The notes beneath the pieces were generated by a model. It was not told where the DNA came from. It saw only the letters and a list, made by a program, of their open reading frames with translations, and ran no database searches. DNA of 64,000 nucleotides from Candidatus Dormiibacterota bacterium (lineage in GTDB: Bacteria > Chloroflexota > Dormibacteria > Aeolococcales > Aeolococcaceae): positions 464,442 to 528,441 of the forward strand of contig CAVOMR010000002.1 of NCBI GenBank assembly GCA_963697085.1, given 5' to 3'. The translations under genes were made by a program, and so were the position numbers. Below are positions 12,905 through 55,252 of the stretch, in pieces. The first letter of the stretch is position 1, and each line of letters begins with the position of its first letter.

Positions 12905-13113
12905 CGCCGCGTGCCGTTTGAAGACACGCTGCCGGTGGTAAAGACCATCGGCAACATGTTCTTCGGATCCGTCAGCATGCCCCGGAGCCAGAGCGCGCCA
13001 ATCAGGCCGAACGAACTCTGAAGGCTTCCCAGCGCAGGTTTTTGCTACGATACGGGATTGTGCCCGTCGCCGCGCATGCCCGCGCGCATTCCTTCTCGGG
13101 GGAACTCTAGCAT

Positions 13114-16100
13114 ATGGTGCTTTCTCTTTCCACTACTGGCGCCCGCAAGTCGTACGGCCAGATTGCAGACAAGCTCGAGGTCGGAAACCTTATCCAGACC
13201 CAGCTTGAACTCGTTCGAGTGGTTCAAGAAAGAGGGACTGAAGGAGCTCTTCAGCGAGCTCAACCCGATCACGGATTACACCGGCAAGAACTACGAGCTG
13301 CGCTTTCTCGATTACGAGTTCGGCGAGCCCAAATACGACGAGGAGGACTGCCGCCAGCGCGACATGACCTTCTCGGCGCCGCTGCGCGTCAACACCCGGC
13401 TGCACATCAAGACTGGCGAGAACGCCGGCGAGATCAAGGAAGCCGAGGTCTTCATGGGCGACTTCGCGATGATGACCGGCGCCGGAACGTTCGTCGTGAA
13501 CGGCACCGAGCGGGTGGTCGTGTCGCAGCTCGTGCGCTCGCCCGGCGTGTACTTCACGAGCAGTGAGGACCGGACGACCGGGCGGCTGCTCTTCGCCGCC
13601 AAGCTCATCCCCAACCGCGGGGCCTGGCTCGAGGTCGAGACGTCGAGCAAGGACATCCTCACGGTCAAGATCGACCGCAAGCGCAAGGTGCCGGTCACCA
13701 CGCTGGTCCGCGCGATCGGCTATGCGAGCAACGACGACATCCGCGCCTTCTTCGCTGACGTCGACGACGACCCCGAGCACCAGTACATCAACGCGACGCT
13801 CGAGAAGGACAGCAGCACGAGCGTCGAGGAGGCGCTCGTCGAGCTCTACCGCAAGATCCGGCCGGGCGATCCGCCAACCGTCGACAACGCGCGCACCTTG
13901 CTGAACTCGCTGTTCTTCAACGCCCGCCGCTTCGACCTCTCCAAGGTGGGCCGGTTCAAGCTCGACAAGAACCTCGGCATCAGCGAGGAAGAGGCACGCG
14001 AGCGCGCCTGGGACAAGGACCGCCGCGTCCTCGACAACCAGGACTTCGTCTCGATCATCCGCAAGGTCATCCAGCTCAACAACGGCCACGGTGAGGCGGA
14101 CGACATCGACCACCTCGGCAACCGTCGCGTGCGCGCCGTCGGCGAGCTCCTGCAGAACCAGTTCCGCATGGGCCTGATCCGCATGGAGCGGATCATCAAG
14201 GAGCGCATGACCATCAGCAACTCGGGGACGATCACGTCCGCGAGCCTGATCAATGCGCGTCCGGTGGTCGCGGCGATCAAGGAGTTCTTCGGGTCCAGCC
14301 AGCTCTCGCAGTTCATGGACCAGACCAACCCGCTCGCGGAGCTGACTCACAAGCGCCGCCTCTCGGCCCTTGGTCCAGGCGGGTTGTCCCGCGAGCGCGC
14401 AGGGTTCGACGTGCGCGACGTGCACCAGAGCCATTACGGCCGGATCTGCCCGATCGAGACCCCGGAAGGTCCGAACATCGGGCTCATCGGCTCGCTCGCG
14501 ACGTTCGCGCGTGTCAACGAGTTCGGCTTCATCGAGACCCCGTTCCGTCGCGTCATCAAGGAGGCGAACGGCACGCCCTGGGTCAGCGACGAGATCGTGT
14601 TCCTGTCCGCCGATGAGGAGGACAAGTACACCGTCGCGCAGGCCAACGCGCCCGTCGACGACAAGGGTCACTTCGCGGTGCAGCACGTCGCGTGCCGCAC
14701 GCGTCACACGTTCAAGGATCTGCCGATCATCGACGTCGATTTCATGGACGTCTCACCGAAGCAGATCGTCAGCGTGGCGACGGCACTCATCCCGTTCCTC
14801 GAGCACGACGACGCGAACCGCGCGCTGATGGGCTCGAACATGCAGAAGCAGGCGGTCCCGCTGCTCGTGGCCGAGTCGCCGATCGTCGGCACCGGAATGG
14901 AGGGACACGCCGCGCGAAACTCGGGCGAGATGGTGCTGGCACGCAAGGCCGGCACGGTGGTCGGCGTCGGCTGGCCGGAGCCCGCGGACAACGACCGCTC
15001 GGTCGAGAAGATCCTCAGCGGGCAGGACAGCGGCATCGGCATCCTGGTGCGTCCCGACGACGGTGGGCCCGACCAGTGGTACGGCGTGCACAAGTTCGTG
15101 CGCAGCAACCAGGGCACCTGCCTCTCGCAGCGCATGACCGTGTTCAGCGGCGCCCGCGTCAACGCCGGCGACGTCCTCGCTGACGGCCCGTCGACCGACG
15201 ACGGCGAGCTCGCGCTCGGACGCAACCTGCTCGTGGCATTCATGCCCTGGGAGGGCTACAACTTCGAGGACGCGATCCTCATCAGCGAGTCGGTCGTGCG
15301 TGAGGACAAGTTCACCTCGATCCACATCGAGGAGTTCGAGATCGAGGCGCGCGACACCAAGCTCGGCGCCGAGGAGATCACGCGCGACCTCCCCAACATC
15401 AATGAGGAGTCGCTGAAGAACCTCAACGAGCGCGGCATCATCTATGTCGGCGCGGAGGTCAACCCGGGCGACATCCTGGTCGGCAAGATCACCCCCAAGG
15501 GCGAGTCGGAGCTGTCGGCGGAAGAGCGTCTGCTGCGCGCCATCTTCGGTGAGAAGGCGCGCGAGGTCCGCGACTCATCGCTGCGCGTCCCGCACGGAGA
15601 GCGCGGCATCGTCGTCGACGTCAAGGTGTTCAGCCGCGAGAGCAATCACGAGCTCCCGCCGGGCGTCAACGAGCTGGTCCGCGTCTACGTTGCCCAGAAG
15701 CGAAAGATCGCCCAGGGCGACAAGATGGCCGGACGTCACGGCAACAAGGGCGTTGTCGCTCGAATCATGCCGATCGAGGACATGCCGTACCTGCCGGACG
15801 GCACCCCCGTCGAGATCGTGCTCAACCCGCTGGGTGTGCCGAGCCGCATGAACCTCGGCCAGGTGCTCGAAACGCATCTCGGATACGCCGCGCATGCGCT
15901 CGGCCTCAAGGTCGCGTCGCCGGTCTTCGACGGCGCGTCGGAAGAGCTCATCGAAAGTGAGCTCGCGCGAGCCGGGCTCCCCAGCAGCGGCAAGGAGCGT
16001 CTCCGCGATGGACGCACCGGCGAGTACTTCGACCGCGAGGTCACCGTCGGCTACATCTACATGCTCAAGCTCCATCACCTCGTCGAGGACAAGATCCACG

Positions 16101-16501
16101 CGCGCAGCACGGGTCCCTACTCGCTCGTCACCCAGCAGCCGCTCGGTGGCAAGGCGCAGTTCGGTGGACAGCGTTTCGGCGAGATGGAGGTGTGGGCGCT
16201 CGAAGCCTACGGCGCGAGCCACATCCTGCAGGAGATCCTCACCGTCAAGAGCGACGACATCGTCGGCCGCGTCAAGGCGTACGAGGCGATCGTCAAGGGC
16301 GAGAACACGCTCGAGGCCGGCATCCCGGAGTCGTTCCGGGTGCTCGTCAAGGAGCTCGAGGGCCTCGCGCTCGGCGTGGAGATCCAGTCCGACGACGAGC
16401 ACCAGATCCTCCTCGGTGAGGAGGACATCCCCGACATTCCACTCGATCTCGGGATCCACCTCGAGCGCGACGAGCGCGACGACGTGGACGACATTCGATA
16501 G
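13114..16501 (+). CDS. rpoB: DNA-directed RNA polymerase subunit beta (apparent frameshift near 13205)
   Basis: True N-terminus [31 protein letters not shown] (track ORF 13114..13566, frame 1) continues as [26 protein letters not shown]... in the 1147-aa ORF 13058..16501 (frame 2); remainder is a canonical beta subunit ([13 protein letters not shown]). Confidence 0.9.
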
Positions 16502-16525: not shown

Positions 16526-20892
<4,367 letters not shown>

Positions 20893-38634: not shown

Positions 38635-38638
38635 TCCG

Positions 38639-39082: not shown

Positions 39083-39090
39083 CGGCCGGG

Positions 39091-39756: not shown

Positions 39757-39769
39757 GGAGCACCCTCAC

Positions 39770-40939
39770 GTGAGCATGGCAGCCGTCCCGCACAAGCTCG
39801 ACAGCCGGTATCTCGAGGCTCTCGGCCCACTGCGCCCGCTGGTCGATGACGACAGCCTCACCGAGATCATGGTCAACGGACCGGAGATGGTCTACGTCGA
39901 GCGCAAGGGCAAGATCCTTCTCACCGACATCCGTTTCGACGACGAGGCTCACCTCATGCGGGTGATCGACACGATCGGCGCCGCCGTCGGCCGCCGCATC
40001 GACTCCCGCACGCCGCTCATGGATGCGCGCCTCCTTGACGGATCCCGCGTGAACGCGGCAATTCCGCCGGTCGCACTCGACGGTCCCATCCTCACCATTC
40101 GTAAGTTCAGCAAGGATCCATACCAGGTCTCCGACCTGATCGGATTCGGCACACTGACGCAGGAAGCCGCGGCCTTCATCCAGGCATGCGTGCTCGCCCG
40201 CGCGAACATCCTCGTGTCGGGTGGAACCGGCACCGGTAAGACAACGCTCCTCAACGTCTGCTCGGGATTCATTCCCATCGATGAGCGCATCGTGACCATC
40301 GAAGACGCAGCCGAGCTCCAGCTGCACCAGGAACACGTCTGCCGTCTTGAGTCACGTCCCCCGGACGTCAACGGCGAAGGACGCATCGCGATCCGCGAGC
40401 TCGTCATCAACTCCCTGCGCATGCGGCCTGACCGCATCGTTGTTGGAGAGTGCCGTGGCGGTGAAGCCCTCGACATGCTCCAGGCGATGAACACCGGCCA
40501 CGACGGGTCGCTCACCACGATCCATGCGAACAGCCCACGCGAGACCCTGTCGAGGCTCGAGACACTGGTCCTCATGGCCGGACTCGACTTGCCCCTCAAG
40601 GCAATTCGCCAGCAGATCGCCGGCGCGATCAACCTGATCATCCAGCTGAACCGTCTCAAGGACGGATCGCGCAAGGTCGTCTCCATCACCGAGGTCATCG
40701 GCATGGAGGGCGAGATGATCACCGTGCAGGAGATCTTCAAGTTCGAGTCCCGCGGCGCGGATCCGTCGACCGGAAAGATCATCGGCGACTTCGAGCCGAC
40801 GGGCATCCGGCCGCGCATCATCGACAGGCTGTTCGACATGGGCATCCCGTTGCCGCCGCGCCTCGCGCAGATCTTCCCGGACCGCCGCCAGGTCGGTGTC
40901 GCCACCGAGAAGAACGGCCACCTCAGCGGAGTCGCGTAG
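39770..40939 (+). CDS. CpaF/TadA/VirB11-family secretion ATPase, compact form (389 aa, lacks the long N-terminal domain)
   Basis: LVSGGTGTGKTTLLNVCSGFIPIDERIVTIEDAAELQLHQEHVCRLESRPPDVNGEGRIAIRELVINSLRMRPDRIVVGECRGGEALDMLQAMNTGHDGSLTTIHANSPRETLSRLETLVLMAG; Walker A, Asp box, Walker B, His box. Confidence 0.88.
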   Translation: MSMAAVPHKLDSRYLEALGPLRPLVDDDSLTEIMVNGPEMVYVERKGKILLTDIRFDDEAHLMRVIDTIGAAVGRRIDSRTPLMDARLLDGSRVNAAIPPVALDGPILTIRKFSKDPYQVSDLIGFGTLTQEAAAFIQACVLARANILVSGGTGTGKTTLLNVCSGFIPIDERIVTIEDAAELQLHQEHVCRLESRPPDVNGEGRIAIRELVINSLRMRPDRIVVGECRGGEALDMLQAMNTGHDGSLTTIHANSPRETLSRLETLVLMAGLDLPLKAIRQQIAGAINLIIQLNRLKDGSRKVVSITEVIGMEGEMITVQEIFKFESRGADPSTGKIIGDFEPTGIRPRIIDRLFDMGIPLPPRLAQIFPDRRQVGVATEKNGHLSGVA

Positions 40940-40955
40940 CCACCTCCGACCGGGC

Positions 40956-41588
40956 ATGTCTCGGAAGGGTGCGCGCGATCGAGTGCTCGTGCCACGGCGT
41001 AGCGCACTCGTGCCGTGCCTCGCACTGCCGTTGCTCGCCGCGTGCGGCAGTGGCGCCACACCCACGGCGACGGTGACCGCGGCGCCGGTGAGCATCGCGT
41101 CGACGCCGACGCCGGCGCCGACCGCAACTCCGATCCCCGAACCGCCGATCGGTGACGCGTGCGTCGTCGGCACCTGGACCGTCACCACCGGAACGATCGT
41201 GGTCGCGTTCCAGACGCAGAAGGGCGCGGTCATCGCCGTCTCAGTCACGGGCGGAGCCGGCATGTTGGAGCATCTCTTCAGCAACGGGTCGCTCGTGGAA
41301 GAGCTGACCGGTACGCCGTTCACGGGCACCGCCAAGGGGTATCGCGTGGTCGTGCGTATGCGGGGCGAGATGCGCTCGCCGATCACCTTTCTGAGTGGGT
41401 CCGCGGCACTCGAGCCCATCGACCTGTCGCAGGCGCACGCGACCATCTCGGTCGACGGCGGGGAGACGAAGAATCTGCCGCTCGCGAACTACGAAATCCT
41501 CACGTACACGTGCACCGGAACGTCACTGACGGAGTCCGACGGCAACGGCAACAGCTATACGTACCAGCGGGTTTCGACGACTCCCTGA
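40956..41588 (+). CDS. Secreted lipoprotein, unknown function
   Basis: MSRKGARDRVLVPRRSALVPCLALPLLAACGSGATPTATVTAAP (signal peptide + lipobox LAAC) then Thr/Pro linker and a beta-rich domain. Confidence 0.6.
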   Translation: MSRKGARDRVLVPRRSALVPCLALPLLAACGSGATPTATVTAAPVSIASTPTPAPTATPIPEPPIGDACVVGTWTVTTGTIVVAFQTQKGAVIAVSVTGGAGMLEHLFSNGSLVEELTGTPFTGTAKGYRVVVRMRGEMRSPITFLSGSAALEPIDLSQAHATISVDGGETKNLPLANYEILTYTCTGTSLTESDGNGNSYTYQRVSTTP

Positions 41589-41657
41589 CCTGGTGGGACG
41601 GGTGCCACGTGGGCGCGCAGCGGACCCTCAAGCGCAGTCACAGCGTGCCGGTTGTCG

Positions 41658-41759
41658 TCAGGGAGGCGGTTCCACAACGGGAAGGCCGTCAGCCATGTGG
41701 ATGCGCCAGCCCTGCTCGTGCACCGCACGGTGGTGTCGCCGGCACAGCGAGACCAGGTT
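41658..41759 (-). pseudogene. 3'-terminal fragment of a REP13E12/DUF222-type HNH endonuclease gene (NLVSLCRRHHRAVHEQGWRIHMADGLPVVEPPP*)
   Basis: Minus-strand translation gives the canonical HNH tail (NLV-LC-RHH-VHE-GW); collinear with HNH pieces at 50252..50365 and 52191..53222. Confidence 0.75.
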
Positions 41760-41902
41760 GGTCGTCATCTACTGGCACTGACCGGCGGGCGCGGGGGATG
41801 TCATGTAGATAGCCCGCGTGCGCCTCTTCATAGGCAGCGGACGCGTTATCCCGGAACGCAGCTTCCGCGAACCAGACCGGCTCCACTTTAAGGGATGGTG
41901 CG

Positions 41903-43180
41903 ATGGAGCGAGACCAGATAGGTCGACATGAGCATATCGACACCGTCATAGCGCGTCAGGCGCGATGCAACACGGGCCTGCTTCCACATCGGCGCCATTT
42001 ACCGTTCCGGTGGCGACGGTCGCAGGTCACGTGGCCAGGCATCGCCACGCCACTGGTGGCAAGCCTCGTGCTGGCGGCCTGTGGCGCGAGCGCCACGTCA
42101 CCGGCCGCGGCGACCCCATCGGTCACGACCCCATCGGTCAACCCAACACCCTCAGCCGTTGCGCCCGCCGCAGAGCTGCAGCACCTCTGGATCGGCGCGC
42201 CACGCGTGGTCGCCCAGATCGGGACGGACCCGGTGCTCCCGGTGCTATCGATCGCCGGCAGCGCGATCTCGCTGAACATCGACCTCGGGCCGGTGGTCCT
42301 GGCATCGGACGCCGCAGCCAGCGGCCCGGGCACGCTGTCGCTCACGCTGCGCTCGCCCATGTACGGCTGCGCCACGGGCGCCGCAGGGACGTACGCGTGG
42401 TCCCTCGCGCCGGGCGGGGGCACCCTCACCTTGACCGCGAGCAACGATGCCTGCGCCGCGCGCGCGGCGGCCTTCGTCGGTACGTGGACCCGCTCGGATT
42501 GTCGCAACACCGCCGACGACTGCCTCGGGACGCTCCAGGCCGGGACACACGCGTCCACCTTCTTCGACGGACGCGACGCGTCGGCCGCCGTCCCCACCGA
42601 CGGGGCCTATGGCCAACTGCGATACACGGTGCCGGCCGGCTGGGCCAACAGCGAGGACTTCCCAATCGACTACGACCTCATGCCGGCGGCCGACTATGCC
42701 GGCGCGGCCGGCGTGACCGATGGCTCGGCCTACCACGGGATCTACATCTTCGCCCGGCCAGCGGCCCAAGCCGACAACGCGAGCTGTGCCAACCAGCTCG
42801 CGCCAGGCGTCGGCCAGACGCCGGCCGCCCTCGCCGCCTGGGTCGCCAACCGGCCCGGCGTTATCGCTACGAAGCCAACGGCCATCACGATCGGCGGCGA
42901 CCCGGGCTTCATGCTCGACCTCCACCTCGCGCCGAACCGCACGAAGCGGTGTCCCGGTGACAGCTTCCCCTCGCAAGGGCTCCTCGTCGACGCCGGTGGT
43001 GCGACCGACGGCTGGAACTGGGGCATCGGCGGCACCGAACAGCAGCGCCTCATCCTCTTGGCGATCGGCGGTGGCCACACCGTGGCCATCTTCGTCGACG
43101 ACAACTCCAGCCCGTCACGCTTTGGCGAACTCGTCGCCCAGGCGATGCCCATCATCACCACGTTCCAGTTCCCGCAATGA
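41903..43180 (+). CDS. Secreted lipoprotein, unknown function (Cys-containing extracytoplasmic domain)
   Basis: ...VTWPGIATPLVASLVLAACGASATSPAAATPSVTTPSVNPTPS (lipobox LAAC); real start probably the GTG near 42030; 425-aa track ORF. Confidence 0.6.
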   Translation: MERDQIGRHEHIDTVIARQARCNTGLLPHRRHLPFRWRRSQVTWPGIATPLVASLVLAACGASATSPAAATPSVTTPSVNPTPSAVAPAAELQHLWIGAPRVVAQIGTDPVLPVLSIAGSAISLNIDLGPVVLASDAAASGPGTLSLTLRSPMYGCATGAAGTYAWSLAPGGGTLTLTASNDACAARAAAFVGTWTRSDCRNTADDCLGTLQAGTHASTFFDGRDASAAVPTDGAYGQLRYTVPAGWANSEDFPIDYDLMPAADYAGAAGVTDGSAYHGIYIFARPAAQADNASCANQLAPGVGQTPAALAAWVANRPGVIATKPTAITIGGDPGFMLDLHLAPNRTKRCPGDSFPSQGLLVDAGGATDGWNWGIGGTEQQRLILLAIGGGHTVAIFVDDNSSPSRFGELVAQAMPIITTFQFPQ

Positions 43181-43323
43181 TCGACGGCCAGGGCGGCGGT
43201 GGACCGACGTTGGCCCCGCATCGGCGGCCGACGCCCAGGCCAGAGATCCGTCCGTCGATCCGCTCAGCCTTCCTTATTGCCGATGGGCGCAATGGCCGGA
43301 CGTGACGACGTGGGGAATATCCG

Positions 43324-43869
43324 GTGTGGGTCGGGATCATGATGCGGGCAGCAATGGCTGGCGAGCAGCGGGCGCTGAGAGACGAGGGAGACGCGAGTTT
43401 CGAAGCGTGTTTCACTGCCGAGGAGCACCGTCTTTTTGCGATCGCCATGTCGATCCTACGCGACCCGGCAGAGGCTCAGGACGCGACCCAGGAGACGGCA
43501 TTGATCGGATGGCGGCGGTGGAGTTCACTCCGGGATCCCGCGCGCTCAGGGGCGTGGCTGGCAAAGATCTGCGTGCACCACTGCGTGCGGCGCAAACGCT
43601 CGCTCGTCCGGTGGCTCAGTTTCGACCCATCCGTCCAGCAAGTTCGTGCGGAGGCAGATTTCCATATGCAGGATGGGGGGCGATTTGCCGATATGGACCG
43701 AGCCTACACACGGCTTTCGGCGCGCCAGCGCGCCGTCGTCAGCCTGCACTATCACCACGGCTACACGCTCGTCGAATGCGCGGATCTCATGGGGTGCAGC
43801 CCCGGATCCGTGTCGCAGCACCTCGCGAGAGCGCTCCGGTCGTTGCGAAGGGACCTCAGCGATGAATGA
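43324..43869 (+). CDS. ECF-type RNA polymerase sigma-70 factor
   Basis: Region 2: FEACFTAEEHRLFAIAMSILRDPAEAQDATQETALIGWRRW; region 4: LSARQRAVVSLHYHHGYTLVECADLMGCSPGSVSQHLARALRSLRRDL. Confidence 0.85.
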   Translation: MWVGIMMRAAMAGEQRALRDEGDASFEACFTAEEHRLFAIAMSILRDPAEAQDATQETALIGWRRWSSLRDPARSGAWLAKICVHHCVRRKRSLVRWLSFDPSVQQVRAEADFHMQDGGRFADMDRAYTRLSARQRAVVSLHYHHGYTLVECADLMGCSPGSVSQHLARALRSLRRDLSDE

Positions 43870-45002
43870 CAATCTTCAGAACTCGGCTCGACGCCTATCT
43901 CAACCGCTTCGAGACTTTTACGTCGCCACCGCTCGCCGTCAGGATCCCCGGGAGGCGCGCCAGACGACTGAACTTCCTGGCCGCCGCCGCTCTCGTTGCG
44001 GTCGTTGCCGTGGTTCTGGCCGCTCCAATCCTACTGTGGAGATTGGACGTCCGACACACGGCGCCAGCGGTGCCGCCGCTCCACCACAACGGGCAGATCG
44101 TGACGGGGCTCGGGAGCACCTTGGTCGCGTTGAACCTCGCCACCGGCGAGCAGCATGTGATCTTCTCCGACCCCGCGGGCGACGCAGTCCTCGATCCCGC
44201 GTACTCGCCGGATGGCACGAAGATCGCGTACCTCGAGGGTACCCTGCTCGACCACGGCATCGTGACAAACCCCACTTCGATTTGGGTCCTCGACACAACG
44301 ACCGGGCACACCCGGCTCCTCACGAGGTGTAGCGGGTGCGACATCTCCGACTACATCAGCTGGTCACCTGACGGTTCGCGTCTGGCCTTCTCTCAGGCTG
44401 ATCAGCGGGGAAGCCTGCAGCTCTATCTCATCGACGCCGACGGCAGCCACCTGACCCAGCTGACCCACTTCCCGGCTGCTCAGAACGCGGCGCAACCGAC
44501 GTGGTCCCCCGACGGCACGCGCCTTGCGTTCACTCTTTTCGGTATTGGAAACATCCCCAACCAGGGGGTGGTCTACACATCGGTCGACCTCGATGTCATC
44601 CGGGCCGATGGCACTGGGCTTGCCACGCTCCTCGCCAGTGGTCAGAACAGCAGCAACTTCACCATCTCCCAATACCTATTCCCGGCGTGGTCGCCAAACG
44701 GCTCTCGGATCGCGTACGTCCTCCTTGACCCGCCAGTGGCGGGCGGAGTCCCCCAGGCCCAGGTGTGGCTCATGAATCCCGACGGCTCGCATCGCACCGC
44801 GATCTTTTGGCAGAACGGCTGCTGCAGCGGCCTGGTGTGGTCACCCGATGGGACGCGGATGGTTGCCGCGACATTTGGTGGCGCTGGTTCTGGCGCGAAC
44901 CAGTCCGGGCTCTGGGTGATGAACGCCGACGGGTTTGCGGAAAAGGACACGAGCGAGATCAGCGACTACCTCGGCCGCCCGGCCTGGCAGCCAGTGCCGT
45001 GA
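43866..45002 (+). CDS. Membrane-anchored TolB-like beta-propeller (PD40 repeats) protein; candidate anti-sigma factor for the upstream ECF sigma
   Basis: ATGA overlap with the sigma gene; N-terminal cytoplasmic segment, TM (LNFLAAAALVAVVAVVLAAPILLW), then repeated ...SPDGTKIAYL..., ...WSPDGSRLAFS..., ...WSPDGTRLAFT..., ...WSPNGSRIAYV..., ...WSPDGTRMVA... Confidence 0.75.
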   Translation: MTIFRTRLDAYLNRFETFTSPPLAVRIPGRRARRLNFLAAAALVAVVAVVLAAPILLWRLDVRHTAPAVPPLHHNGQIVTGLGSTLVALNLATGEQHVIFSDPAGDAVLDPAYSPDGTKIAYLEGTLLDHGIVTNPTSIWVLDTTTGHTRLLTRCSGCDISDYISWSPDGSRLAFSQADQRGSLQLYLIDADGSHLTQLTHFPAAQNAAQPTWSPDGTRLAFTLFGIGNIPNQGVVYTSVDLDVIRADGTGLATLLASGQNSSNFTISQYLFPAWSPNGSRIAYVLLDPPVAGGVPQAQVWLMNPDGSHRTAIFWQNGCCSGLVWSPDGTRMVAATFGGAGSGANQSGLWVMNADGFAEKDTSEISDYLGRPAWQPVP

Positions 45003-45203
45003 CAAACCGTCAGGGCTATCCCAGCGGCAGCACCAGGGGGAACTGGTGGGCGATGACGCCTCGACGGTATCGATCATTCACGAGTGATGGGACTTCGTTG
45101 GGCTCATGATGATGCGCGCCGACGGCTCCGACCGCATGGTGACCTGGCATCCCACGCCACACACAGACAGATCCACACGCGGCCGGGTCTGGGGTAGCGC
45201 CCC

Positions 45204-46499
45204 ATGATGGAACGCCTGGGAACATCTGGCCCTCACACCCGGCGGAGGGCGATGCTGCGCCTCGCGGTTGTCGTCGTGATCGTTGGCGTTGCGTCATGGC
45301 TTGCCACTGGGCAGATCGGGCGCGCCGGGCAGCATTCAACGTCCGCGTCCTCGATCACCAGGTCTTCAGCGTCACCATCCTCGATCACCGGGTTCACAGC
45401 GTCACCATCCTCGATCACCGGGTCTTCAGCGTCACCATCCCTGACGTTGCCGGAGATCGGCCTTCTGTCCGGCGTGACCTGCGTGAGTGCACGAGATTGT
45501 TGGGCAGATGGTTCCAACGGATCATCAACACTGATGGTCCATTACGCCGGGAGTGGCTGGGCCTTCGTCACCGCTCCTTACCCGGCAGGGTCCACTGCTG
45601 CGTTGAACGGGGTGACCTGCGTGAGCGCTGACGATTGTTGGGCGGTTGGGAGTTCTGGCCCGGCGGGGCAGCCCGGTGATGCACCGCTGATCGAGCGCTA
45701 CACCGGGAGCAGCTGGACGATCGCCTCCGCCCCCGACCCTCGCCTCGGTCCGAACGTCGTGCTGAATGCAGTGGCCTGCATGAGCGCTGGGGAATGTTGG
45801 GCGGTTGGCGACTCCGGAAACGCCAGCGCCACCAGCCCACTGGTCGAGCGCTACACGGGGGGCCGCTGGGTGATCGTCGGCATCTCCAACCCGAGCCCGG
45901 ACCCGTTTGCTGTCTTGAATGGGGTGGCCTGCATGAGTAATGGGGAGTGTTGGGCGGTCGGCTACTCAGGCAATGTCAGCATCACCCGCCCATTGATCGA
46001 GCAGTACACGGGAAGCCGCTGGATCATCGTCGACGCGCGGAACCCCAGCGCAGCCCCCTTCGTCGCGCTGAATGCGATCGCCTGTGTTGGCCAACAGTGT
46101 TGGGCGGTTGGCTCGTCCGGCATCGGCGAGCCGGCGCTGCTCGAACACTTCACCGGAAGCACGTGGGTCATCGGCGCCCAATCCAGCGGGGGGGTCGCGA
46201 TCGGGGTGAGCTGTCCAAGCGTCGAGGACTGCTGGGCGGTTGGTCAGACCCAGCAACCAGCGATCGCCCAAGGTCCGCCGATGATCGAGCACTACAACGG
46301 GATCAGCTTGACAGCCGATCACACTCCAAACCAGATTGCGGGCGAAACCGGGGCCGTCTTAACTGGGGTGTCCTGCGTGAGTGTCTCGGACTGCTGGGCG
46401 GTGGGCTTTGGTGGGGGGGAGGGCAACCAGGGAACAATCATCGAGCAGTACACGGGGAGTGACTGGCGCGTGATTCGTGCTCTGAGCCACGGGCCGTGA
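45204..46499 (+). CDS. Signal-anchored secreted repeat protein with about 8 copies of a roughly 46-aa 'LNGVxCxSxxxCWAVG' repeat (novel; beta-propeller-like) after a Ser-rich linker
   Basis: LSGVTCVSARDCWADG / LNGVTCVSADDCWAVG / LNAVACMSAGECWAVG / LNGVACMSNGECWAVG / LNAIACVGQQCWAVG / GVSCPSVEDCWAVG / LTGVSCVSVSDCWAVG, each followed by ...ERYTGS(S/R)W(T/V)I...; N-terminal TM MLRLAVVVVIVGVASWLATG. Confidence 0.7.
   Translation: MMERLGTSGPHTRRRAMLRLAVVVVIVGVASWLATGQIGRAGQHSTSASSITRSSASPSSITGFTASPSSITGSSASPSLTLPEIGLLSGVTCVSARDCWADGSNGSSTLMVHYAGSGWAFVTAPYPAGSTAALNGVTCVSADDCWAVGSSGPAGQPGDAPLIERYTGSSWTIASAPDPRLGPNVVLNAVACMSAGECWAVGDSGNASATSPLVERYTGGRWVIVGISNPSPDPFAVLNGVACMSNGECWAVGYSGNVSITRPLIEQYTGSRWIIVDARNPSAAPFVALNAIACVGQQCWAVGSSGIGEPALLEHFTGSTWVIGAQSSGGVAIGVSCPSVEDCWAVGQTQQPAIAQGPPMIEHYNGISLTADHTPNQIAGETGAVLTGVSCVSVSDCWAVGFGGGEGNQGTIIEQYTGSDWRVIRALSHGP
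45344..45442 (+). repeat. Coding tandem repeat, about 3 x 33 nt (tcaccatcctcgatcaccgggtcttcagcg) encoding Ser-rich linker SASPSSITG-
   Basis: Protein: SASSITRSSASPSSITGFTASPSSITGSSASPS; nucleotide repeats read directly at 45344-45442. Confidence 0.8.
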
Positions 46500-46686
46500 C
46501 CGACGGCTCCCACACGTCGAGATCTGGCATCGCAACCCGAGCATGAACCTCGTTCATTCAGGCTAAGCTTGGGCCACTGCACCATGATGCAGCGGGCTGA
46601 GACGTCAGCATCGTATGGCCGGCGGAGTGCCGCGGATGCACGCGAGGCTTCGTCGTGAGCGTGGGGTGGTGTCCGGTGGGATTACG

Positions 46687-46716
46687 GAGGGGTTGTATTA
46701 ACGACGGACGAGGTTG
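46687..46716 (+). repeat. 30-bp direct repeat, copy 1 (gaggggttgtattaacgacggacgaggttg); 25/30 identical to 50241..50270; att-like
   Basis: Direct comparison of the two 30-mers; the shared 3' 11-mer ggacgaggttg is the reverse complement of the HNH codons for N-L-V. Confidence 0.7.
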
Positions 46717-46774
46717 ATCAATACCCTCTGCCGGGTCTAGATGCCTCCCTTGTCGCGGAGCGCCTGCAGCGCCT

Positions 46775-46978
46775 TCAGCGCAGCCAGTCGGCTTCGGAAT
46801 TGGGCTTCATCCGAACGAGAACGTCTCGAGCACGGAGGCAGTAACCGCACGTAGCACACTTCGAGCTCGGGCGGGCTGCAGGTAGATCACGTATCCCGAC
46901 GCTGGACTTCTGATATGTGAGCGGAACGAGTCGGGTCGAGTGACATCGCGGACATAGCAGCAAGGTTCCGTGGAGCAT
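46775..46978 (-). CDS. Small Cys-rich ORF (CxxC...CxxC zinc-ribbon-like), possibly a degraded gene remnant
   Basis: MLHGTLLLCPRCHSTRLVPLTYQKSSVGIRDLPAARPSSKCATCGYCLRARD; lies in a locally low-GC, gene-poor stretch. Confidence 0.2.
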   Translation of the reverse strand: MLHGTLLLCPRCHSTRLVPLTYQKSSVGIRDLPAARPSSKCATCGYCLRARDVLVRMKPNSEADWLR

Positions 46979-47034
46979 GCAGAATTTCGCAGGAGTGGGC
47001 CGTTGGCCGTTTTCGGTCGAGAATGGAGGCGGTA

Positions 47035-47280
47035 TTAGTAGATGTGGGCGGTCCGGACCATCCTCACCAAGTCCGTGAGGCGTGAATCGACGGCAATTCT
47101 CGTTGCACGACCCGCCAAGTCGCTGAGTTCACGATCAATATGATCGAGAATCGCGCTCACTTCGTCGTCGTTGAGCGAGAAGCCGACCACCGCGGCGGCG
47201 GCATCGATGTCCTGACTTCGGATGGTGACCGGGATCCGCACCTCGCGCGTCATTGCAGTGCTAACCATGGCGAGTATCAT
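47035..47280 (-). CDS. Hypothetical small protein (81 aa)
   Basis: MILAMVSTAMTREVRIPVTIRSQDIDAAAAVVGFSLNDDEVSAILDHIDRELSDLAGRATRIAVDSRLTDLVRMVRTAHIY; no confident family. Confidence 0.3.
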   Translation of the reverse strand: MILAMVSTAMTREVRIPVTIRSQDIDAAAAVVGFSLNDDEVSAILDHIDRELSDLAGRATRIAVDSRLTDLVRMVRTAHIY

Positions 47281-47726
47281 CGTCCTCCAGGGCGGGGCGG
47301 GAGGTGTAGTGGGCTTGTACGCCCGTTCCGTCTGGCATCCATCGTTTCCGAACGAGCGCCGATGCACAAGAGCCGAAGGTCCCGTTTGGCAGAACGGGAG
47401 GAGAGCCGATTGTCACATCGAAAACCGTCCGAACGACGAGGAGGAGCGTGCTGGCTGATCCCACTGTCGATGAGGACCGTCACCGCACCTGCTCAGAAGT
47501 CACGTCGCAGCGAGTTCTGCCGACCAGCGACGTCATGCGACGGAAGGGCCAATTACGATCGGCGAGTGAAGCTACCGCCTCTCGGCGTTACCCCCTGAAC
47601 ATTCGAAAGACGGCAAGCACCGGTGACGACCTTGGCTCGCCGACAAGTGACTGCACCCCAGCGTCCTTTCTCACAAAACAGACATCCGGCGCCATGTTCG
47701 CGATGATCTTCACCGACTGCCGGAAG

Positions 47727-48318
47727 TCACTTGACGACACCCGCGCCTGCCGCGTTGACGACTTCCCAGCGAGCTCCGAAGGCGTCGATCCCCTCGCCGT
47801 TCGCCACGCCCGGCGCCGAATCGGCGATGAAGTAATAGAGCGGATGACCGTCATAGGTAACTTGGGTCGTCCCGTTCTGGCGCTTGGTCGTGCCGAGCTG
47901 ACTCTGCAAGACGCCGCTCGTCGCTCGTGGGGCACCAATCGTGGTCAAAGGGGGCCAGTTCTGCGCGCACGCCCCTTACAGGTGGACGTCGTGCCTGCGT
48001 CACCCAGGAAGAGATATAGGGTTCTGCCGTTGCCTCCGACGAGGATCTGCCCCAGGTCACCGACGCTGCGCAAGGCCATTGCCGTGCCCGTCGCCGGAGC
48101 GGACGGTGCGGGCGTCGACGTCGGCTTGGCCGTGGCGTCGGCGTGGTTACAGTTGTCGGCGTCGGTGGCGGCGTTGTGGAAGATGGGGCAGTCGGGGTTG
48201 GAGATGTTCCGCCGATTGTGCCGGTGGTTGCAGACCCGCAGGCGGCGAGGATAAGCAGACTAAAGGTACCGCCCAACATCACGAGGTTCCGTGTCATCTG
48301 TCCGTGCTCCGCGGTCAT
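47727..48318 (-). CDS. COG4315-family secreted lipoprotein (Yx(F/Y)xxD motif family); frameshifted around 47990
   Basis: N-terminus MTRNLVMLGGTFSLLILAACGSATTGT... (lipobox) in ORF 47851..48318; C-terminus GTTQVTYDGHPLYYFIADSAPGVANGEGIDAFGARWEVVNAAG in ORF 47727..47948; the middle (LVGGNGRTLYLFLGDAGTTSTC...) is readable only by shifting frame at a GGGG run. Confidence 0.7.
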
Positions 48319-48503
48319 GGCCGCATATCCCGTTGACTCCTGAGTGGGTCACGAACCTCAATACGAGCGGCAGTTACGGATTACGGGAAACGACATCGGC
48401 GCCGCTACATTTCGCCGTCTGGCCCTGTAACTCAGCGCCGTACGAGGAGCGTTTCTGAGCGGTCGACTCCTCACGGTGCCCCCGTCGTCTCGCTACCCTT
48501 CTC

Positions 48504-49058: not shown

Positions 49059-49222
49059 TGTTGATAAGGGCCGGGGACGATTCGTTTAACAGCCCGAGGG
49101 ACTGCCGATACGGGCACTACGAGAAATCAGTCGCATCGACAGCGCCACACCGAGCGAGTACTCGCGCGTTGTCGTCGTTGGCGTCGTCGCTTGCCGCAAT
49201 GAGGTCGTAGGAAGGAGCGAGC

Positions 49223-50240: not shown

Positions 50241-50270
50241 CAGGGGATGTACTAAGGATGGACGAGGTTG
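50241..50270 (+). repeat. 30-bp direct repeat, copy 2 (caggggatgtactaaggatggacgaggttg), at the junction between inserted DNA and the middle HNH fragment
   Basis: 25/30 identity with 46687..46716; 3' part encodes N-L-V of the HNH gene on the minus strand; the related core gaccaggttgg also occurs at 41751..41761. Confidence 0.7.
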
Positions 50271-50365
50271 TCGAGCTCGGTGGGACCGCCATCTGCCCAG
50301 TGGATGATGTGGTGGCCGTCGGTCCATTCAATCGGCCGGTCGCATCCCGGGAAACGGCAGCCCCG
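50252..50365 (-). pseudogene. Middle fragment of the REP13E12/DUF222-type HNH endonuclease gene (RGCRFPGCDRPIEWTDGHHIIHWADGGPTELDNLV-HP*), fused in frame to truncated istB
   Basis: Canonical HNH motif CxFxGC...HHIxHWxxGGxTxLxNLV; preceded without a stop by IstB ...TSNRGFGDWNQ. Confidence 0.8.
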
Positions 50366-51019
50366 TTGATTCCAGTCACCGAAGCCGCGGTTACTGGTGA
50401 GCACGATCGAGGCCTTCTCGTAGCGCCGGCTGACCATCTGAAAGATCCAGTTCGCCGACGCCTGATCGAGGGGCAGGTAGCCGAGTTCGTCGACCACCAG
50501 CACTGACGGACCGGTGTAGGTGCGCATCTTGTAGCTGGCCGTGCCCTCGAGGTGCGCCGACTGGAGGTTGGCCACCAGGTCGGCGGCGGATGTGAAGTAG
50601 GTGCGATAGCCGGCCTCGGTGGCGGCGATGCCGAGTGCAATGGCGAGATGCGATTTGCCCACACCGGGTGGCCCGAGCAGGATGACGTTGCGGCGCTCCT
50701 CGACGAAGCGCAGCGTGGAGAGTTCGGCGAGCACCGTGCGGTCGAGCGAGGGCTGGAAGTCGAGGTCAAACTCGGCGAGCGTCTTGTGAATCGGGTAGCG
50801 CGCAAAGCGCAGCCGTCCGCGCAGCCGACGTGCCCGGGTTGCATCCGCTTCGATCGCCATGAGGCGTTCCAACACCTGCGTCGCCGAGGCCTGCTCGCGC
50901 GTGCCGCGGTCGAGCTCGTCGGCAAGATGCTCTGCGGCGGCGCTCATTTCGAGGTACGCAAGATGTTCGCGCAGGCGCTGATACGCGCTGGGGTCCGAGC
51001 TGCTGGCACGCGGGCTCAC
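50366..51019 (-). CDS. istB: IS21-family transposition helper ATPase IstB (about 219 aa retained, C-terminally truncated)
   Basis: RNVILLGPPGVGKSHLAIALGIAATEAGYRTYF (Walker A)...SVLVVDELGYLPLDQASANWIFQMVSRRYEKASIVLTSNRGFGDWNQ. Confidence 0.85.
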
Positions 51020-52047
51020 AACGCCACCTCGTAGGCGCTGAGCGGACGCACCTCAACCTGCTCGCCGAGCTGACGTTGCGCGGCATCGACCACGTGCAGA
51101 ACGGGGCGCGCAGCGTCGTCGCCGGCAAAGCGTTCGAGCAGATGGCGGGGCACGGCGCTGAGCAGACGGCGTTCCTCGGCCCAGGCCTCGCCGATGATCC
51201 GCTGGGTGGTGCGGTGGCGGCGCGGCAGGATGCGCTCCCGGATCCAGCGCAGCGCGAAGGCGTCGTAGTCGGCGATGCTCGGCCGAGGCGGCAGCACCTG
51301 GCCGGTGAGCCAGCAGCGAAAGCTCTGCTCGACCTCACGGTTCTCGCGTTCGACCTTGCCTTTGGTTTTGGCGCGGTATGGCCGGCACGCACGGGGCACC
51401 GTGCCCAGCAGTGCGCAGAGGTCGATCCACTCGGGGACGAACAGTGGGCCGTCGGCGGCGTGGTTGCAGAACACCGTATCGCGGTCGGTGAGCAGCTCCC
51501 GCGTGACCCCACCGAGGTCGTCGAGGCAGCGCACCAGGCGCTCGAAGCTCACCTCCCGCGTGCAGCTGGCAGCGATCCGGATCGCGGGCATGCGGCTGTG
51601 CCCGAGGATCGCCACCATGGCGTGGAGCTCGACCAGCTCCTCGCCGAGCGGCCAGCTCCCGATGTGCTTCCAGTCCGCCTGGGTCTGCACACCGGGCAAC
51701 GTCTCGAAGCGCACCTCGGGGTCATGTGGCAGGGCGGGCCGGAGCGGACGGACCTGACGCAGGAAGGTCCAATAGCTGCCCGCATAGCCGTATTCGGTGC
51801 GCAGCTCGTGGTGCAGGTCGGTGCTGCGCAGCACCGGACAGACCAGCAGCCGGCATTCGATGTGGGCCAGCTGCGCTTCGTTGAGCGGGTGGCGCGGGGC
51901 GCGCTGCGGGTACCGAGACGGGCGCTCGGCGTCGAGCTCCCTGCGCACCGTGCGCCGGTTCAGCTTGAAGTGGCGGGCGAGCGCACTGACGCTCCATCCG
52001 TGTTGGTGCAGGACATGCAGTTCCATCCAGAGTTCCTCAAACTCCAC
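51016..52047 (-). CDS. istA: IS21-family transposase IstA
   Basis: MEFEELWMELHVLHQHGWSVSALARHFKLNRRTVRRELD (HTH)...WKHIGSWPLGEELVELHAMVAILGHSRMPAIRIAAS...TDRDTVFCNH...YRAKTKGKVERENREV (DDE domain). Confidence 0.85.
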   Translation of the reverse strand: MEFEELWMELHVLHQHGWSVSALARHFKLNRRTVRRELDAERPSRYPQRAPRHPLNEAQLAHIECRLLVCPVLRSTDLHHELRTEYGYAGSYWTFLRQVRPLRPALPHDPEVRFETLPGVQTQADWKHIGSWPLGEELVELHAMVAILGHSRMPAIRIAASCTREVSFERLVRCLDDLGGVTRELLTDRDTVFCNHAADGPLFVPEWIDLCALLGTVPRACRPYRAKTKGKVERENREVEQSFRCWLTGQVLPPRPSIADYDAFALRWIRERILPRRHRTTQRIIGEAWAEERRLLSAVPRHLLERFAGDDAARPVLHVVDAAQRQLGEQVEVRPLSAYEVAL

Positions 52048-52190
52048 GGCGGTCCCTCTTGGTGCTGGTGGCGTTGAACACCGTCCAGCTTGCCCGGAGG
52101 GACTGCCTTTTTTCCGATCACGATCAGGTCCGATCCACCCCTGAGGACCTGTGCACTATTGTGTCAGAACTGCGCATATTCTGTAAAGAG

Positions 52191-53222
52191 GTCGCGCACC
52201 ACCAGCGCAGTGCGGATGTGCACCGGGATGGTGCGCGCGGCGCGACCCACCGAGAGCGGCACCACCGGCGTCGTGACTGCCGAGAGCCACGCATCGGTAC
52301 CATCCGCACTATCCGAAGACAGCGGCACGGTCACCTCGGTCTTGACTGCGTCGCAGGCGATACGGCGTGCGGTCTCAGGATGGATCGGCCCCGCACCCTG
52401 GAGCGTCGCGGCCTCCGCATCCGCATCATTGCGCAGCGCTGGAGCACTCACCGTGACGGTGAGATGCGGCCGCTGCCCGTGCATCTCGGGAAGCGCAGCA
52501 GAGCGCAACTGCGAGGCAGCATGGTCGACCAGCGCATCCGCACGACGCTGCGACGCACTGCGCGTGTCCCCAGGACGGGGCATCTCGGTGATCGCATCGA
52601 GCCAGGTCTTGACCAGGGCGCCGCTTTCGGTGTCGAACTGCCCCTGGGAGAACCACTCACCGCCGTACGACTGATCGAGGTTGAACCAGCGGCGCTCGTG
52701 GGCACGGTTGTCAGCGGCAAGGACCCCGTCGGGATCGACCCGGAGCCGGGTTGCCTGGATGACGGTGCGCATCGGCCCGGCCTCGAGGGTCTCCGCCGCT
52801 CCCACCAGGATCATCTCCAGTGGAGCGATCTCCGCCACCCCGACCTCCTTGGCGAGGGAGGCAATCTGGGTCACGTTGCTCAACGAGGCACGGCCGGCAC
52901 GAGCGCTGTCGAGCGTGGCCGGCAGTTCGCTCAGGGTCCGCGCCAGATGCACGCGTTCGGCAGCCGCCTTCCCGGTCATGGCGCAGTGATGGCGCACCCA
53001 GGAGGTCGTGCTCACGCCTCCATCGGCGAGCGCACCGTGGGCGCGGTCGAAACGTCCCAGGCGACGCAGGCACTCAGCCTCGAGCCGGTCGATCAGCAGC
53101 CGGATGTCGATCACGTCCGCGCCCAGTGCGTGCGTCGAAAACCCCTCGATGGGCTCGGCGACGAGAGCATCAACCGCGCTCGTGAGACGGTCTCGGGCAT
53201 CGGGAATTGCGAACGCTTCCAT
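52191..53222 (-). pseudogene. 5' portion (DUF222 domain) of the REP13E12-type HNH endonuclease gene, interrupted after ...ALVVRD by the IS21 element
   Basis: MEAFAIPDARDRLTSAVDALVAEPIEGFSTHALGADVIDIRLLIDRLEAECLRRLGRFDRAHGALADGGVSTTSWVRHHCAMTGKAAAERVHLARTLSELP... typical DUF222; track ORF 52164..53222 ends LFTEYAQF*, which is IS-derived. Confidence 0.8.
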
Positions 53223-53596
53223 TCACGGAAGTATAGCAAACATGTGTTCGCCAATGCCTGGACTCAACACGGACAATGTGTGTCCGTGTCGACTTATTGC
53301 CATCTTCGGCAATAACAACCTCCCGCGTAGCTGGGACCATCGCCGACGACGACAACTCCCGCCTGCTTGTGCGCGAAGAAGCCCTGCACGGGAGGCGTCG
53401 CCGCCGAGTAGAACGGCCAACTCAGCGGAGTCGCGAAGCCCTTTCCGCGGCCGGCGTCAGTGACGATGCGCGCCTGCGCGCGCGCCGATCGGACTACCGC
53501 TCTTCTCGAGATGGTTCGTGGCGCGCGCGGTGGTATGCGACCAGGCAGAGAACGGCCGCGTATTCCAGGGAGGGCATCCCCGCACCGGAGCCGCGA

Positions 53597-55252
53597 CTAC
53601 GCGGAGCCGACCCCGTCCATCACGTGGATGGGCTGGAAGATGTCCTCGGAGATCTCCTCACCGGAGGTCGTCAGATGCTCGAGGAACGTGGGCAGCACGC
53701 CGGTCGGCATGTACGAGCCGACGACCTTCCCTTCCTCGTCGACGCCCACCTGCTTGTACGTGAAGATGTCCTGGAGCTGCACCTCGTTGTTCGTGCAGCC
53801 GAGCACCTCGGTGATGCTCACGATCTTGCGTGTGCCGTCGCGAAGACGCGACTGCTGCACGACGACGTTGACCGCGGAGCCGATCTGCTCGCGAATCGCT
53901 CGCGAGGGCAGCTCCGCGCCGGCCATGAGGACGAGCGTTTCGAGACGGCTGATGCAGTCGTGGGCGTTGTTCGCATGGAGCGTCGTCAGCGACCCGTCGT
54001 GGCCGGTGTTCATCGCCTGGAGCATGTCCAGCGCCTCACCGCCACGACACTCTCCGACGACGATGCGGTCGGGCCGCATGCGCAGCGAGTTGATCACGAG
54101 GTCTCGGATCGACACGCGGCCACGACCTTCGACGTTTGCCGGTCGCGTTTCGAGCGTCACGACATGGTCCTGGCGGAGCTGGAGCTCGGCGGCGTCCTCG
54201 ATCGTGACGATGCGCTCATCCTCGGGGATGAAGCTGCTGAGGATGTTGAGCGTCGTCGTCTTCCCGGAGCCGGTGCCACCACTCACCACCACGTTGAGCT
54301 TGCCGCGCACGCACGCGCGCAGGAACCTGACCATGTCCTCGGTGATCGACCCGTACTTGACGAGATCCTCGATGGTCAGCGCTTCCTTGGCGAACTTCCG
54401 AATGGTCATGGTCGGCCCGCGCAGCGCGAGCGGAGGGATGATCACGTTGACACGGGATCCGTCCTTGAGCCGTGCATCGACCATCGGCGACAACTCGTCG
54501 ACACGTCGGCCGATGCTGCTGACGATCCGGTCGATCACCTGCATCAGCTGCTGATCGCTCTCGAATGTCACCGGGCTCAGGGTCAACTTGCCATGCTGCT
54601 CAACATAGATCTGCTTGTAGCTGTTGATCATGATTTCGGTGATGTCCTCGCTCGCGAGCAGCTCCTCGAGCGGGCCGAGTCCGAGCACATCGTTGGTGAG
54701 GATCTCGACGAGACGCAACCGGTCCGGCCTGCTCATCGTGATGTTCTGCTCGGTGATCACATCGTTGAGCAGCTCCGCGATGCGCTGTCGAACGGTCTCC
54801 GGCGGCACCGAGTCGGTGCCCTGCGCCAGCTCCTCGACGAGACGCTGATGCACCTTGGCGCGGAGCGCGACATGCGTGTTGGTGTGCCCGCCCATCTTGC
54901 TGAGCCCCGGACGGCTGAGACCGCTCGCGCCGCTCGAGCGGTTCAGGAGCGAGGGTGCACGCTGCGGTTCCGCGGCGGCGGGCCGCTCAGCCTCGAACGG
55001 CCGTGGAGCCGGCGCCGCGGGCCGCACCGGTGCTGGTGCGGGTGCAGGTGCCGGCGCGGGGGCGGGCTGCTGCTGCTGTGGCGGGGACGCCGGCCCGGGG
55101 CCCTGGCGTTGCTGCCAGCCAGCTGGACGGTACCGATCGTTCTCGACGTCCGGGGTACGCTCGGGCGACGGGGCCGGGCCCGCCGGAGCGGCTGGGGTGG
55201 AGGGCGCGGGACCTCCCTCTGCCTTGCGCTGAACTCGGTCGAGCAACGACAT
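53597..55252 (-). CDS. cpaF: CpaF/TadA-family pilus/secretion ATPase, full-length form with Pro/Ala-rich N-terminal region
   Basis: ...VVSGGTGSGKTTTLNILSSFIPEDERIVTIEDAAELQLRQDHVVTLETRPANVEGRGRVSIRDLVINSLRMRPDRIVVGECRGGEALDMLQAMNTGHDGSLTTLHANNAHD...; N-terminus QQQQPAPAPAPAPAPAPVRPAAPAP. Confidence 0.9.
   Translation of the reverse strand: MSLLDRVQRKAEGGPAPSTPAAPAGPAPSPERTPDVENDRYRPAGWQQRQGPGPASPPQQQQPAPAPAPAPAPAPVRPAAPAPRPFEAERPAAAEPQRAPSLLNRSSGASGLSRPGLSKMGGHTNTHVALRAKVHQRLVEELAQGTDSVPPETVRQRIAELLNDVITEQNITMSRPDRLRLVEILTNDVLGLGPLEELLASEDITEIMINSYKQIYVEQHGKLTLSPVTFESDQQLMQVIDRIVSSIGRRVDELSPMVDARLKDGSRVNVIIPPLALRGPTMTIRKFAKEALTIEDLVKYGSITEDMVRFLRACVRGKLNVVVSGGTGSGKTTTLNILSSFIPEDERIVTIEDAAELQLRQDHVVTLETRPANVEGRGRVSIRDLVINSLRMRPDRIVVGECRGGEALDMLQAMNTGHDGSLTTLHANNAHDCISRLETLVLMAGAELPSRAIREQIGSAVNVVVQQSRLRDGTRKIVSITEVLGCTNNEVQLQDIFTYKQVGVDEEGKVVGSYMPTGVLPTFLEHLTTSGEEISEDIFQPIHVMDGVGSA

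Follow-up and report, generated by a model that had tools for sequence, protein, structure and literature searches.

The 64,000-nt window analysed here, a stretch of high-GC chromosomal DNA from a Candidatus Dormiibacterota bacterium, carries a three-gene module that is probably an envelope-sensing cassette of an extracytoplasmic function (ECF) sigma factor and its anti-sigma factor in a Dormibacteraeota-like chromosome. The genes encode the sigma factor, a membrane-anchored PD40 beta-propeller partner and a second surface propeller with CWAVG repeats. All three open reading frames (ORFs), which an earlier note on this DNA had described, are present on the forward strand (Table 1; positions are those of the whole window, L numbers denote related loci and P numbers database proteins). 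The cassette is a so far uncharacterised variation on the ECF sigma/anti-sigma scheme that combines a minimal cytoplasmic tail with propeller sensors and lies in a variable island. The window also holds rpoB (13058..16501) and rpoC (16526..20479), both Pfam-confirmed. A database entry 100% identical to the PD40 protein exists, and relatives of this protein and of the neighbouring CpaF are annotated in Candidatus Dormibacteraeota/Dormibacteria metagenome-assembled genomes (MAGs).

By its domains and superfamily score, the first ORF is an ECF (group 4) sigma-70 factor. A Pfam scan of the 176-181 aa product gives matches to PF04542 (region 2; 3.6e-9), PF04545 (3.3e-12) and PF08281 (7.7e-12) and none to region 3; sigma3 and sigma1.1 are absent. 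TIGR02937 (sigma70-ECF) reaches 69.3 bits (cutoff 42.9) and PF07638 21.5 (cutoff 21.1), and all subfamily models fall below their cutoffs (for example SigE-fam_strep, 90.9 against 141.55). The closest solved relative is SigL of Mycobacterium tuberculosis (E 1e-10). The first in-frame start of the maximal ORF is the GTG at 43324; the alignment of ten orthologous upstream regions makes the ATG at 43339 (MMRAAMA...) the likely start instead.

The junction with the next gene reads ...GATGAATGACA, with the sigma stop TGA at 43867-43869 and the partner ATG at 43866-43868, so the ATGA overlap reported earlier is confirmed. In most partner homologues the start lies one codon further upstream (MND...) and the overlap is 8 nt; the window shows a 1-nt frame difference there. 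Translation of the sigma factor is coupled to that of its partner, a single-pass membrane protein with N-in topology.

This partner (43866..45002, +) consists of a 34-residue cytoplasmic tail, one transmembrane (TM) helix and a PD40 propeller, and the earlier description of a signal-anchored, TolB-like propeller protein has held up well. The PD40 family (PF07676) is matched at 4.2e-24, and exactly five [WY]SP[DN]G-x-[RK]-[LIM]-[AV]-x motifs stand at residues 113, 166, 213, 275 and 325. In the AlphaFold2 (AF2) model (confidence, pLDDT, 80) a helix of low confidence at residues 2-12 is followed by the TM helix (35-61) and the propeller (78-378), and the best Protein Data Bank (PDB) matches of the model are TolB structures (Foldseek, E 2e-16, TM-score 0.6). 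An N-in/C-out topology is predicted from the positive-inside rule, with an RRARR stretch on the N-terminal side of the helix. Four cysteines of the propeller, C155-x2-C158 (44328-44339) and C319-C320 (44820-44825), are invariant across 21 family members. The tail carries the motif LDAYLNRFxTF and then an Arg-rich stretch before the TM helix. Its residues Y11, L12, R14, T17 and F18 are invariant in 10 sequences, the L095 protein described below included, and its mean identity (0.58) is close to that of the propeller (0.59).

In an operational definition, a putative anti-sigma factor is encoded at the +1 position of an ECF gene, is conserved within the group and usually has one TM helix; most proteins so defined have no Pfam match (Casas-Pastor et al., 2021; PMC7826278). 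Related loci were sampled from the PD40 side (L001, L004, L006, L007, L008, L088, L089 and L090, and the more distant L091 and L092), and the ECF sigma gene stands immediately upstream of the PD40 gene, with overlapping stop and start codons, in 10 of 10 loci. The sigma orthologues share 81-86% identity, compared with 52-67% among their PD40 partners. Because of the strict +1 position, the overlap, the single TM helix and the conserved tail, the PD40 protein is likely to be the anti-sigma factor of the adjacent ECF sigma, a putative role that the earlier note had also proposed. That proposal is partly supported, as the 34-residue cytoplasmic part holds no recognisable anti-sigma domain.

The absence of such a domain is also what would be seen if the PD40 protein were a co-transcribed envelope target that binds peptides or cell-wall material, and not a regulator, with the sigma controlled in some other way. 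The operon does encode further extracytoplasmic propellers that are clearly not anti-sigma factors (the second PD40 lipoprotein of relatives and the CWAVG protein). Moreover, the sigma could sense redox state or metal directly. Its CVHHC (C78, C82; residues 78-82), HYHH (137-140), C147 and C153 do not vary among five orthologues, and L095 retains the cysteines; together these residues could form a redox or metal site inside the sigma itself. For ECF57, conserved Cys pairs have been suggested to connect sigma2 with sigma4 (review, PMC8999054). Nevertheless, the overlap and strict +1 position hold in every locus, whereas the other propeller genes vary, and the tail is as conserved as the propeller. 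Furthermore, the tail is kept in L095 despite replacement of the ectodomain, which is unexpected for a mere signal anchor. A target role is as such considered unlikely, and an anti-sigma role remains the preferred explanation.

L095 is particularly informative for the tail. At the same chromosomal site it encodes a sigma 66% identical to that of the window and an overlapping partner beginning MMNDETVNARLVDYLGRYTTF, in which the same tail motif and a TM helix are followed by approximately 400 residues without PD40 or any other Pfam match. Since LDAYLNRFxTF is retained there with an unrelated ectodomain, the tail can be regarded as a module, and a division into a putative sigma-coupled element (the tail) and a swappable sensor (the ectodomain) is the preferred reading of these sequences. 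The L095 pair lies at 12603-14555; its sigma gene, a paralogue of that in the window, is frameshifted, and the frameshifts may be long-read assembly errors.

Tight coupling and a short conserved tail would suit any obligate partner, inhibitor or activator alike. The partner could accordingly be required for sigma activity, as a pro-sigma or activator of the kind reported for the FecR-type N-terminus, instead of being purely inhibitory, or it could do both. This is considered improbable, as a whole-protein Pfam scan gives no FecR-type similarity and most single-pass ECF partners at +1 are inhibitors (PMC7826278).

The same kind of partner is found well beyond the close relatives. A scan from the sigma side returned many metagenomic ECF sigmas (33-38% identity) with ATGA-overlapping +1 genes, whose products have a short 'MTDRELExRLRAWY...' tail, one TM helix and a PD40, PD40 plus Kelch or BNR/sortilin ectodomain; in approximately 10 distinct cases from soil metagenomes the ectodomain is PD40. 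The pairing of a sigma with a tailed PD40 partner is hence recurrent in soil metagenomes and not rare, and the earlier description of the architecture as unusual is not supported. The LDAYLNRFxTF-type and MTDRELE-type tails align weakly (hhalign probability 50% across the first 13 residues). It is possible, if rather doubtful, that the N-terminal motifs M-x-D-x-x-L-x-x-x-L-D-A-Y-L-x-R-F-x-T-F and, in the wider clade, MTDRELExRLRAWY (~25 residues) mark a new minimal class of anti-sigma element that pairs with its own ECF lineage. Such a class would serve as a universal adaptor for swappable PD40, Kelch, BNR or undescribed disulfide-rich CWAVG propellers in soil bacteria, Dormibacterota among them, with cassettes exchanged at hotspots such as the cpaF-cpaF gap. 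A different coupling of the two domains occurs in a Latescibacteria MAG, where ECF sigma and PD40 repeats are naturally joined in a single polypeptide without an obvious TM helix (P0093).

The third gene of the module encodes a cell-surface repeat protein, as had been noted, with a TM helix and seven C-x(4-5)-C-W-A-[VD]-G units; its blades also carry LIEHYTG. In the AF2 model (pLDDT 80) a TM helix spans residues 13-34, the Ser/Thr/Pro linker is disordered, and the 28 strands are read as seven blades. Three tandem 30-nt units (45337-45440) within the linker region encode SSIT(R/G)(S/F)(S/T)ASP. The protein matches no Pfam or NCBIfam family, its more than 1,500 homologues are all named hypothetical, and among PDB structures the model matches generic propellers only (best, the CylK propeller, E 3e-10). 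Public annotation (P0121) gives a shorter protein of 321 aa without the TM helix and linker; the homologues P0122, P0123 and P0124 support the longer reading of 431 aa. Two single polypeptides, P0161 and P0228, combine an ECF sigma, zf-HC2, a TM helix and a CWAVG propeller. As judged from their sequences, these fusions independently tie this propeller type to cell-surface sigma signalling.

Between the partner and the CWAVG gene lie 201 nt, which agrees with the spacing given earlier, yet this stretch is more than a simple spacer. A second, lipoprotein-type PD40 gene follows the pair in L001, L006, L007, L089, L090, L091 and L092. In tblastn searches, the second PD40 proteins of L089, L006, L001, L007 and L090 match the spacer with 46-62% identity over 36-38 residues (E 1.6e-15 to 3e-10); the closest match is to L089 (62% identity, E 1.6e-15), and window 45094-45204 corresponds to the last 37 residues. 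As the spacer holds the last 37 codons of this gene, the operon of the window derives by deletion from one of four genes. L089 has these in the order sigma, partner, second PD40 gene and CWAVG gene, the last two overlapping, and the CWAVG gene overlaps the preceding gene in L001 as well. In the window, the stop TGA of the remnant similarly overlaps the ATG of the CWAVG gene (ATGA). Three in-frame ATGs at 45106-45114 permit a 33-codon stump ORF that ends in this ATGA. No ECF-like promoter was found before 45204, and the CWAVG gene is most probably expressed by read-through from upstream. A protein of approximately 570 aa without a Pfam match is encoded downstream of the pair in L001 and L004.

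A 43-nt block directly abutting the sigma ATG is conserved in the ten loci (consensus CCGGACGTGACGACGTGGAGAACATTCGCCGCAGGTCCGGATC), and the DNA upstream of it is not alignable among them. In the window the block contains ACGTGACGACGTGG at 43300-43313 and a -35-like GGGGAAT at 43312-43318 (consensus GGAGAAC), and its invariant GGATC at 43334-43338 abuts the ATG. The geometry of the consensus, GGAGAAC-N16-GATC, is ECF-like, the window version being GGGGAAT-N16-GATC (43312-43338). The block is tentatively read as a sigma-autoregulated promoter on this pattern. The strict AAC-N16-17-CGT pattern that the earlier note had suggested is absent upstream of both 43324 and 45204. Scans for sigma-70 promoters and terminators gave matches at chance level.

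In the proposed mechanism, the 34-residue tail would act as a minimal anti-sigma element, its conserved amphipathic N-terminal helix (LDAYLNRFxTF) binding the sigma and holding it at the membrane. The propeller would read a ligand or the state of the envelope, and through its four invariant cysteines it could depend on disulfides or on metal. A signal would free the sigma through proteolysis of the anchor or a conformational change, and the free sigma would transcribe its own operon from the GGAGAAC-N16-GATC block. Read-through would then express the downstream surface propellers, namely the CWAVG protein here and the PD40 lipoprotein and beta-helix-like protein in relatives.

Several points weigh against this scheme. 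Sigma binding by the tail is a prediction from sequence. Class I anti-sigma domains are approximately 80-90 aa long, and the 34-residue tail is too short to be one. The earlier note had looked to structure prediction for a sigma-binding N-terminal domain; AF2 does place a short helix there, but one of low confidence and with no folded domain around it, an outcome that neither refutes the proposal nor clearly upholds it. The tail matches no Pfam family even at E = 10, and its profile finds only chance TM matches among PDB sequences, with no anti-sigma chain. A phmmer search with the 64-residue tail plus TM helix against 1.84 billion representatives returned a single relative (P0013), a query of this length being too short for family mapping. 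A class I anti-sigma factor of the zf-HC2/RskA type was accordingly tried as a candidate and rejected on the 34-residue length, the lack of a Pfam match at E = 10 and the one short AF2 helix. The three genes are also not uniformly conserved together: the sigma/PD40 pair holds throughout, but in the close-clade set of eight loci (window included) the CWAVG gene lies downstream on the same strand in five (the window, L001, L088, L089 and L090) and is absent from three (L004, L006 and L007), as it is from the distant L091 and L092. The co-conservation foreseen for all three genes is thus partly supported. Similarly, the promoter is tentative and pattern-based, since the proposed -10 element abuts the ATG and would place the transcription start within the annotated first codons. 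GGAGAAC-N16-GATC has no second strict match in the window, and loose matches occur at chance level.

The location of the cassette in an inserted or variable segment, another part of the earlier description, is confirmed by synteny. The flanks are collinear with two relatives (L094 and L095; ~80% identity). In L094 only approximately 290 nt separate the convergent cpaF#1 and cpaF#2 genes, and nothing there corresponds to window 40949-53600. The segment contains two lipoprotein genes (40896..41588 and 41903..43180), the sigma/PD40/CWAVG cassette, decayed genes, ABM and methyltransferase genes, an IS21 element and a DUF222 gene. It is bracketed by two copies of a 47-nt repeat (89% identity, blastn E 2e-11) that is single-copy in L094 (11131-11177) and in L095. 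Presence or absence at a defined site, with flanking repeats that are single-copy in the empty site, is what is expected of a genomic island. No tyrosine or serine recombinase, the integrase mark of such islands, was found among the ORFs scanned, and the window holds no tRNA gene and no Rfam match; the only rve-type (DDE transposase) match is IS21 istA (1e-6, below the Pfam cutoff). In L095 this place is taken by another sigma/partner pair, without repeat duplication, and the site between cpaF#1 and cpaF#2 is best described as a variable hotspot. The sigma of the syntenic L095 locus (66% identity) stands further from that of the window than do sigmas at unrelated loci in other MAGs (81-86%), which is compatible with cassette exchange at this site.

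Table 1. Coordinates of the cassette and of surrounding features in the window.
Feature	Position	Strand	Basis or remark
Conserved block before sigma, candidate autoregulated ECF-type promoter	43296..43338	+	conserved in 10 orthologous loci
ECF (group 4) sigma factor, 176 aa	43339..43869	+	Pfam r2, r4, Sigma70_ECF; TIGR02937 above cutoff
Cytoplasmic N-terminal tail of partner, residues 1-34	43866..43967	+	candidate minimal sigma-binding element
Single TM helix of partner, residues 35-61	43968..44048	+	AF2 helix and sequence
Extracytoplasmic TolB-like PD40 beta-propeller, residues 78-378	44097..45002	+	Pfam PD40, Foldseek
Remnant, 3' end of deleted second PD40 (lipoprotein-type) gene	45094..45207	+	tblastn
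Membrane-anchored seven-bladed beta-propeller protein (CWAVG), 431 aa	45204..46499	+	AF2, sequence repeats
Variable segment, 12.65 kb, absent from syntenic L094	40949..53600	.	blastn synteny breaks at 40948 and 53601
47-nt imperfect direct repeat, left copy (last 15 codons of cpaF#1)	40895..40941	+	blastn; left edge of variable segment
47-nt direct repeat, right copy, in-frame TAG	53394..53440	+	~155 nt before cpaF#2 stop
cpaF#2, convergent with cpaF#1	53597..55252	-	CpaF-type ATPase
IS21 istB	50252..51019	-	strong IstB_IS21 match
IS21 istA	51016..52047	-	weak rve match
DUF222 gene	52164..53222	-	adjoins IS21

Such a setting raises the question of whether the cassette still works as a unit or is carried along, in decay, by a degraded island. 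The second PD40 gene is reduced to a 37-codon stump, the partner start differs by a 1-nt frame, the GC content at third codon positions is lowered in the three cassette genes (0.73-0.80 against ~0.85 in flanking genes), a nearby Lipoprotein_15 gene is frameshifted, and an IS21 element lies beside an apparently disrupted DUF222-HNH gene. However, none of the three ORFs (sigma, partner and CWAVG) is truncated and each aligns with its homologues over the whole length, the codon-position GC bias is retained and the upstream block is intact. Loss of function is on this balance very unlikely, and a working sigma/anti-sigma cassette is the better account.

Other features of the neighbourhood can be listed briefly. 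The istB ORF has an HNH-like stretch at its C terminus, across IS21 from the DUF222 gene, which suggests that the element inserted into a DUF222-HNH gene; terminal inverted repeats of IS21 were sought and none could be defined. A 43-nt direct repeat (46674-46716 and 50228-50270; 77% identity) lies just downstream of the CWAVG gene and at the istB-proximal end of IS21, and may be a solo remnant of an IS end. The Lipoprotein_15 (PF03640) gene at 47727-48318 (-) is split across frames (47851..48318 and 47727..47948) and appears to be either a pseudogene or the product of an assembly indel. The surrounding 46.5-48.5 kb is gene-poor with a GC content of ~0.60. A 64-aa Cys-rich, zinc-ribbon-like ORF (11185-11379, -) fills the empty site between the cpaF genes of L094, and a 67-aa Cys-rich ORF of the window (46775..46978, -) is similar to it in size and Cys content. 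Outside the segment, 32564-40939 and 53597-55252 hold a ParA/ParB pair, a second ParA-like gene, the two convergent CpaF-type ATPases and a maximal ORF of 1107 aa without a Pfam match, with no recognisable tadB/tadC neighbours. The ParA/ParB-cpaF arrangement is conserved in L094 and L095.

The phylum Dormibacterota is largely uncultured, and a full-text literature search found no published work on its sigma factors or signalling. The literature searched likewise held nothing relevant on ECF/anti-sigma systems with a PD40, TolB-like or beta-propeller partner, the one Leptospira match being unrelated. If the tail is a sigma-binding element, it would add to the known classes a compact anti-sigma module with an easily searchable signature, and the cassette would illustrate how ECF sensors diversify through ectodomain swapping. 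The CWAVG propeller, with its many unnamed relatives, would gain its first functional context in ECF-linked surface sensing. These findings extend a well-known scheme and do not overturn current understanding.

Among known systems, RseA-sigmaE, RsiW-sigmaW and RslA-SigL share with the cassette a sigma gene followed by a +1 partner, translational coupling, N-in single-pass topology and an extracytoplasmic sensing part. They differ in their cytoplasmic part, which in the window partner is 34 aa with one predicted helix; the partner has no zf-HC2, RskA or other anti-sigma Pfam match. A minimal anti-sigma element is feasible, as shown by CnrY, the class II anti-sigma factor of the CnrH/CnrY/CnrX system, a single-pass protein whose sigma-binding cytoplasmic peptide is very short. 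Its ectodomain is almost absent, and it depends on a separate sensor, CnrX. No CnrY chain occurs among the PDB matches of the tail profile at E up to 10.

The likeness to TolB lies in the propeller fold and the PD40 repeats; the sequence identity is ~20%, and a TM anchor stands where TolB has its N-terminal domain. Membership of Tol-Pal as a TolB orthologue was rejected, as TIGR02800 scores 98.6 bits against a cutoff of 343.15 and its best stretch (profile positions 190-296) covers the propeller only. There are also no tol/pal genes in the scanned part of the neighbourhood. The resemblance is one of fold and not of system.

RsgI-type anti-sigma factors of Clostridium thermocellum are single-pass proteins with interchangeable extracellular ligand-binding modules, and the single-pass sensor kinase PknD has a six-bladed NHL-propeller sensor. 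These resemble the partner in architecture, while their cytoplasmic modules and sigma family differ. Beta-propellers are already known to be coupled to ECF signalling in ECF57, which has WD40-like C-terminal extensions (PMC8999054, PMC8567305). ECF52 combines a sigma, a Zn finger, a TM helix and an ectodomain (PMC5826349), the layout seen in the P0161 and P0228 fusions. In the cassette described here, unlike in ECF57 and ECF52, sigma and sensor are separate proteins, the repeats are of the PD40 and not the WD40 type, and the phylum is a different one.

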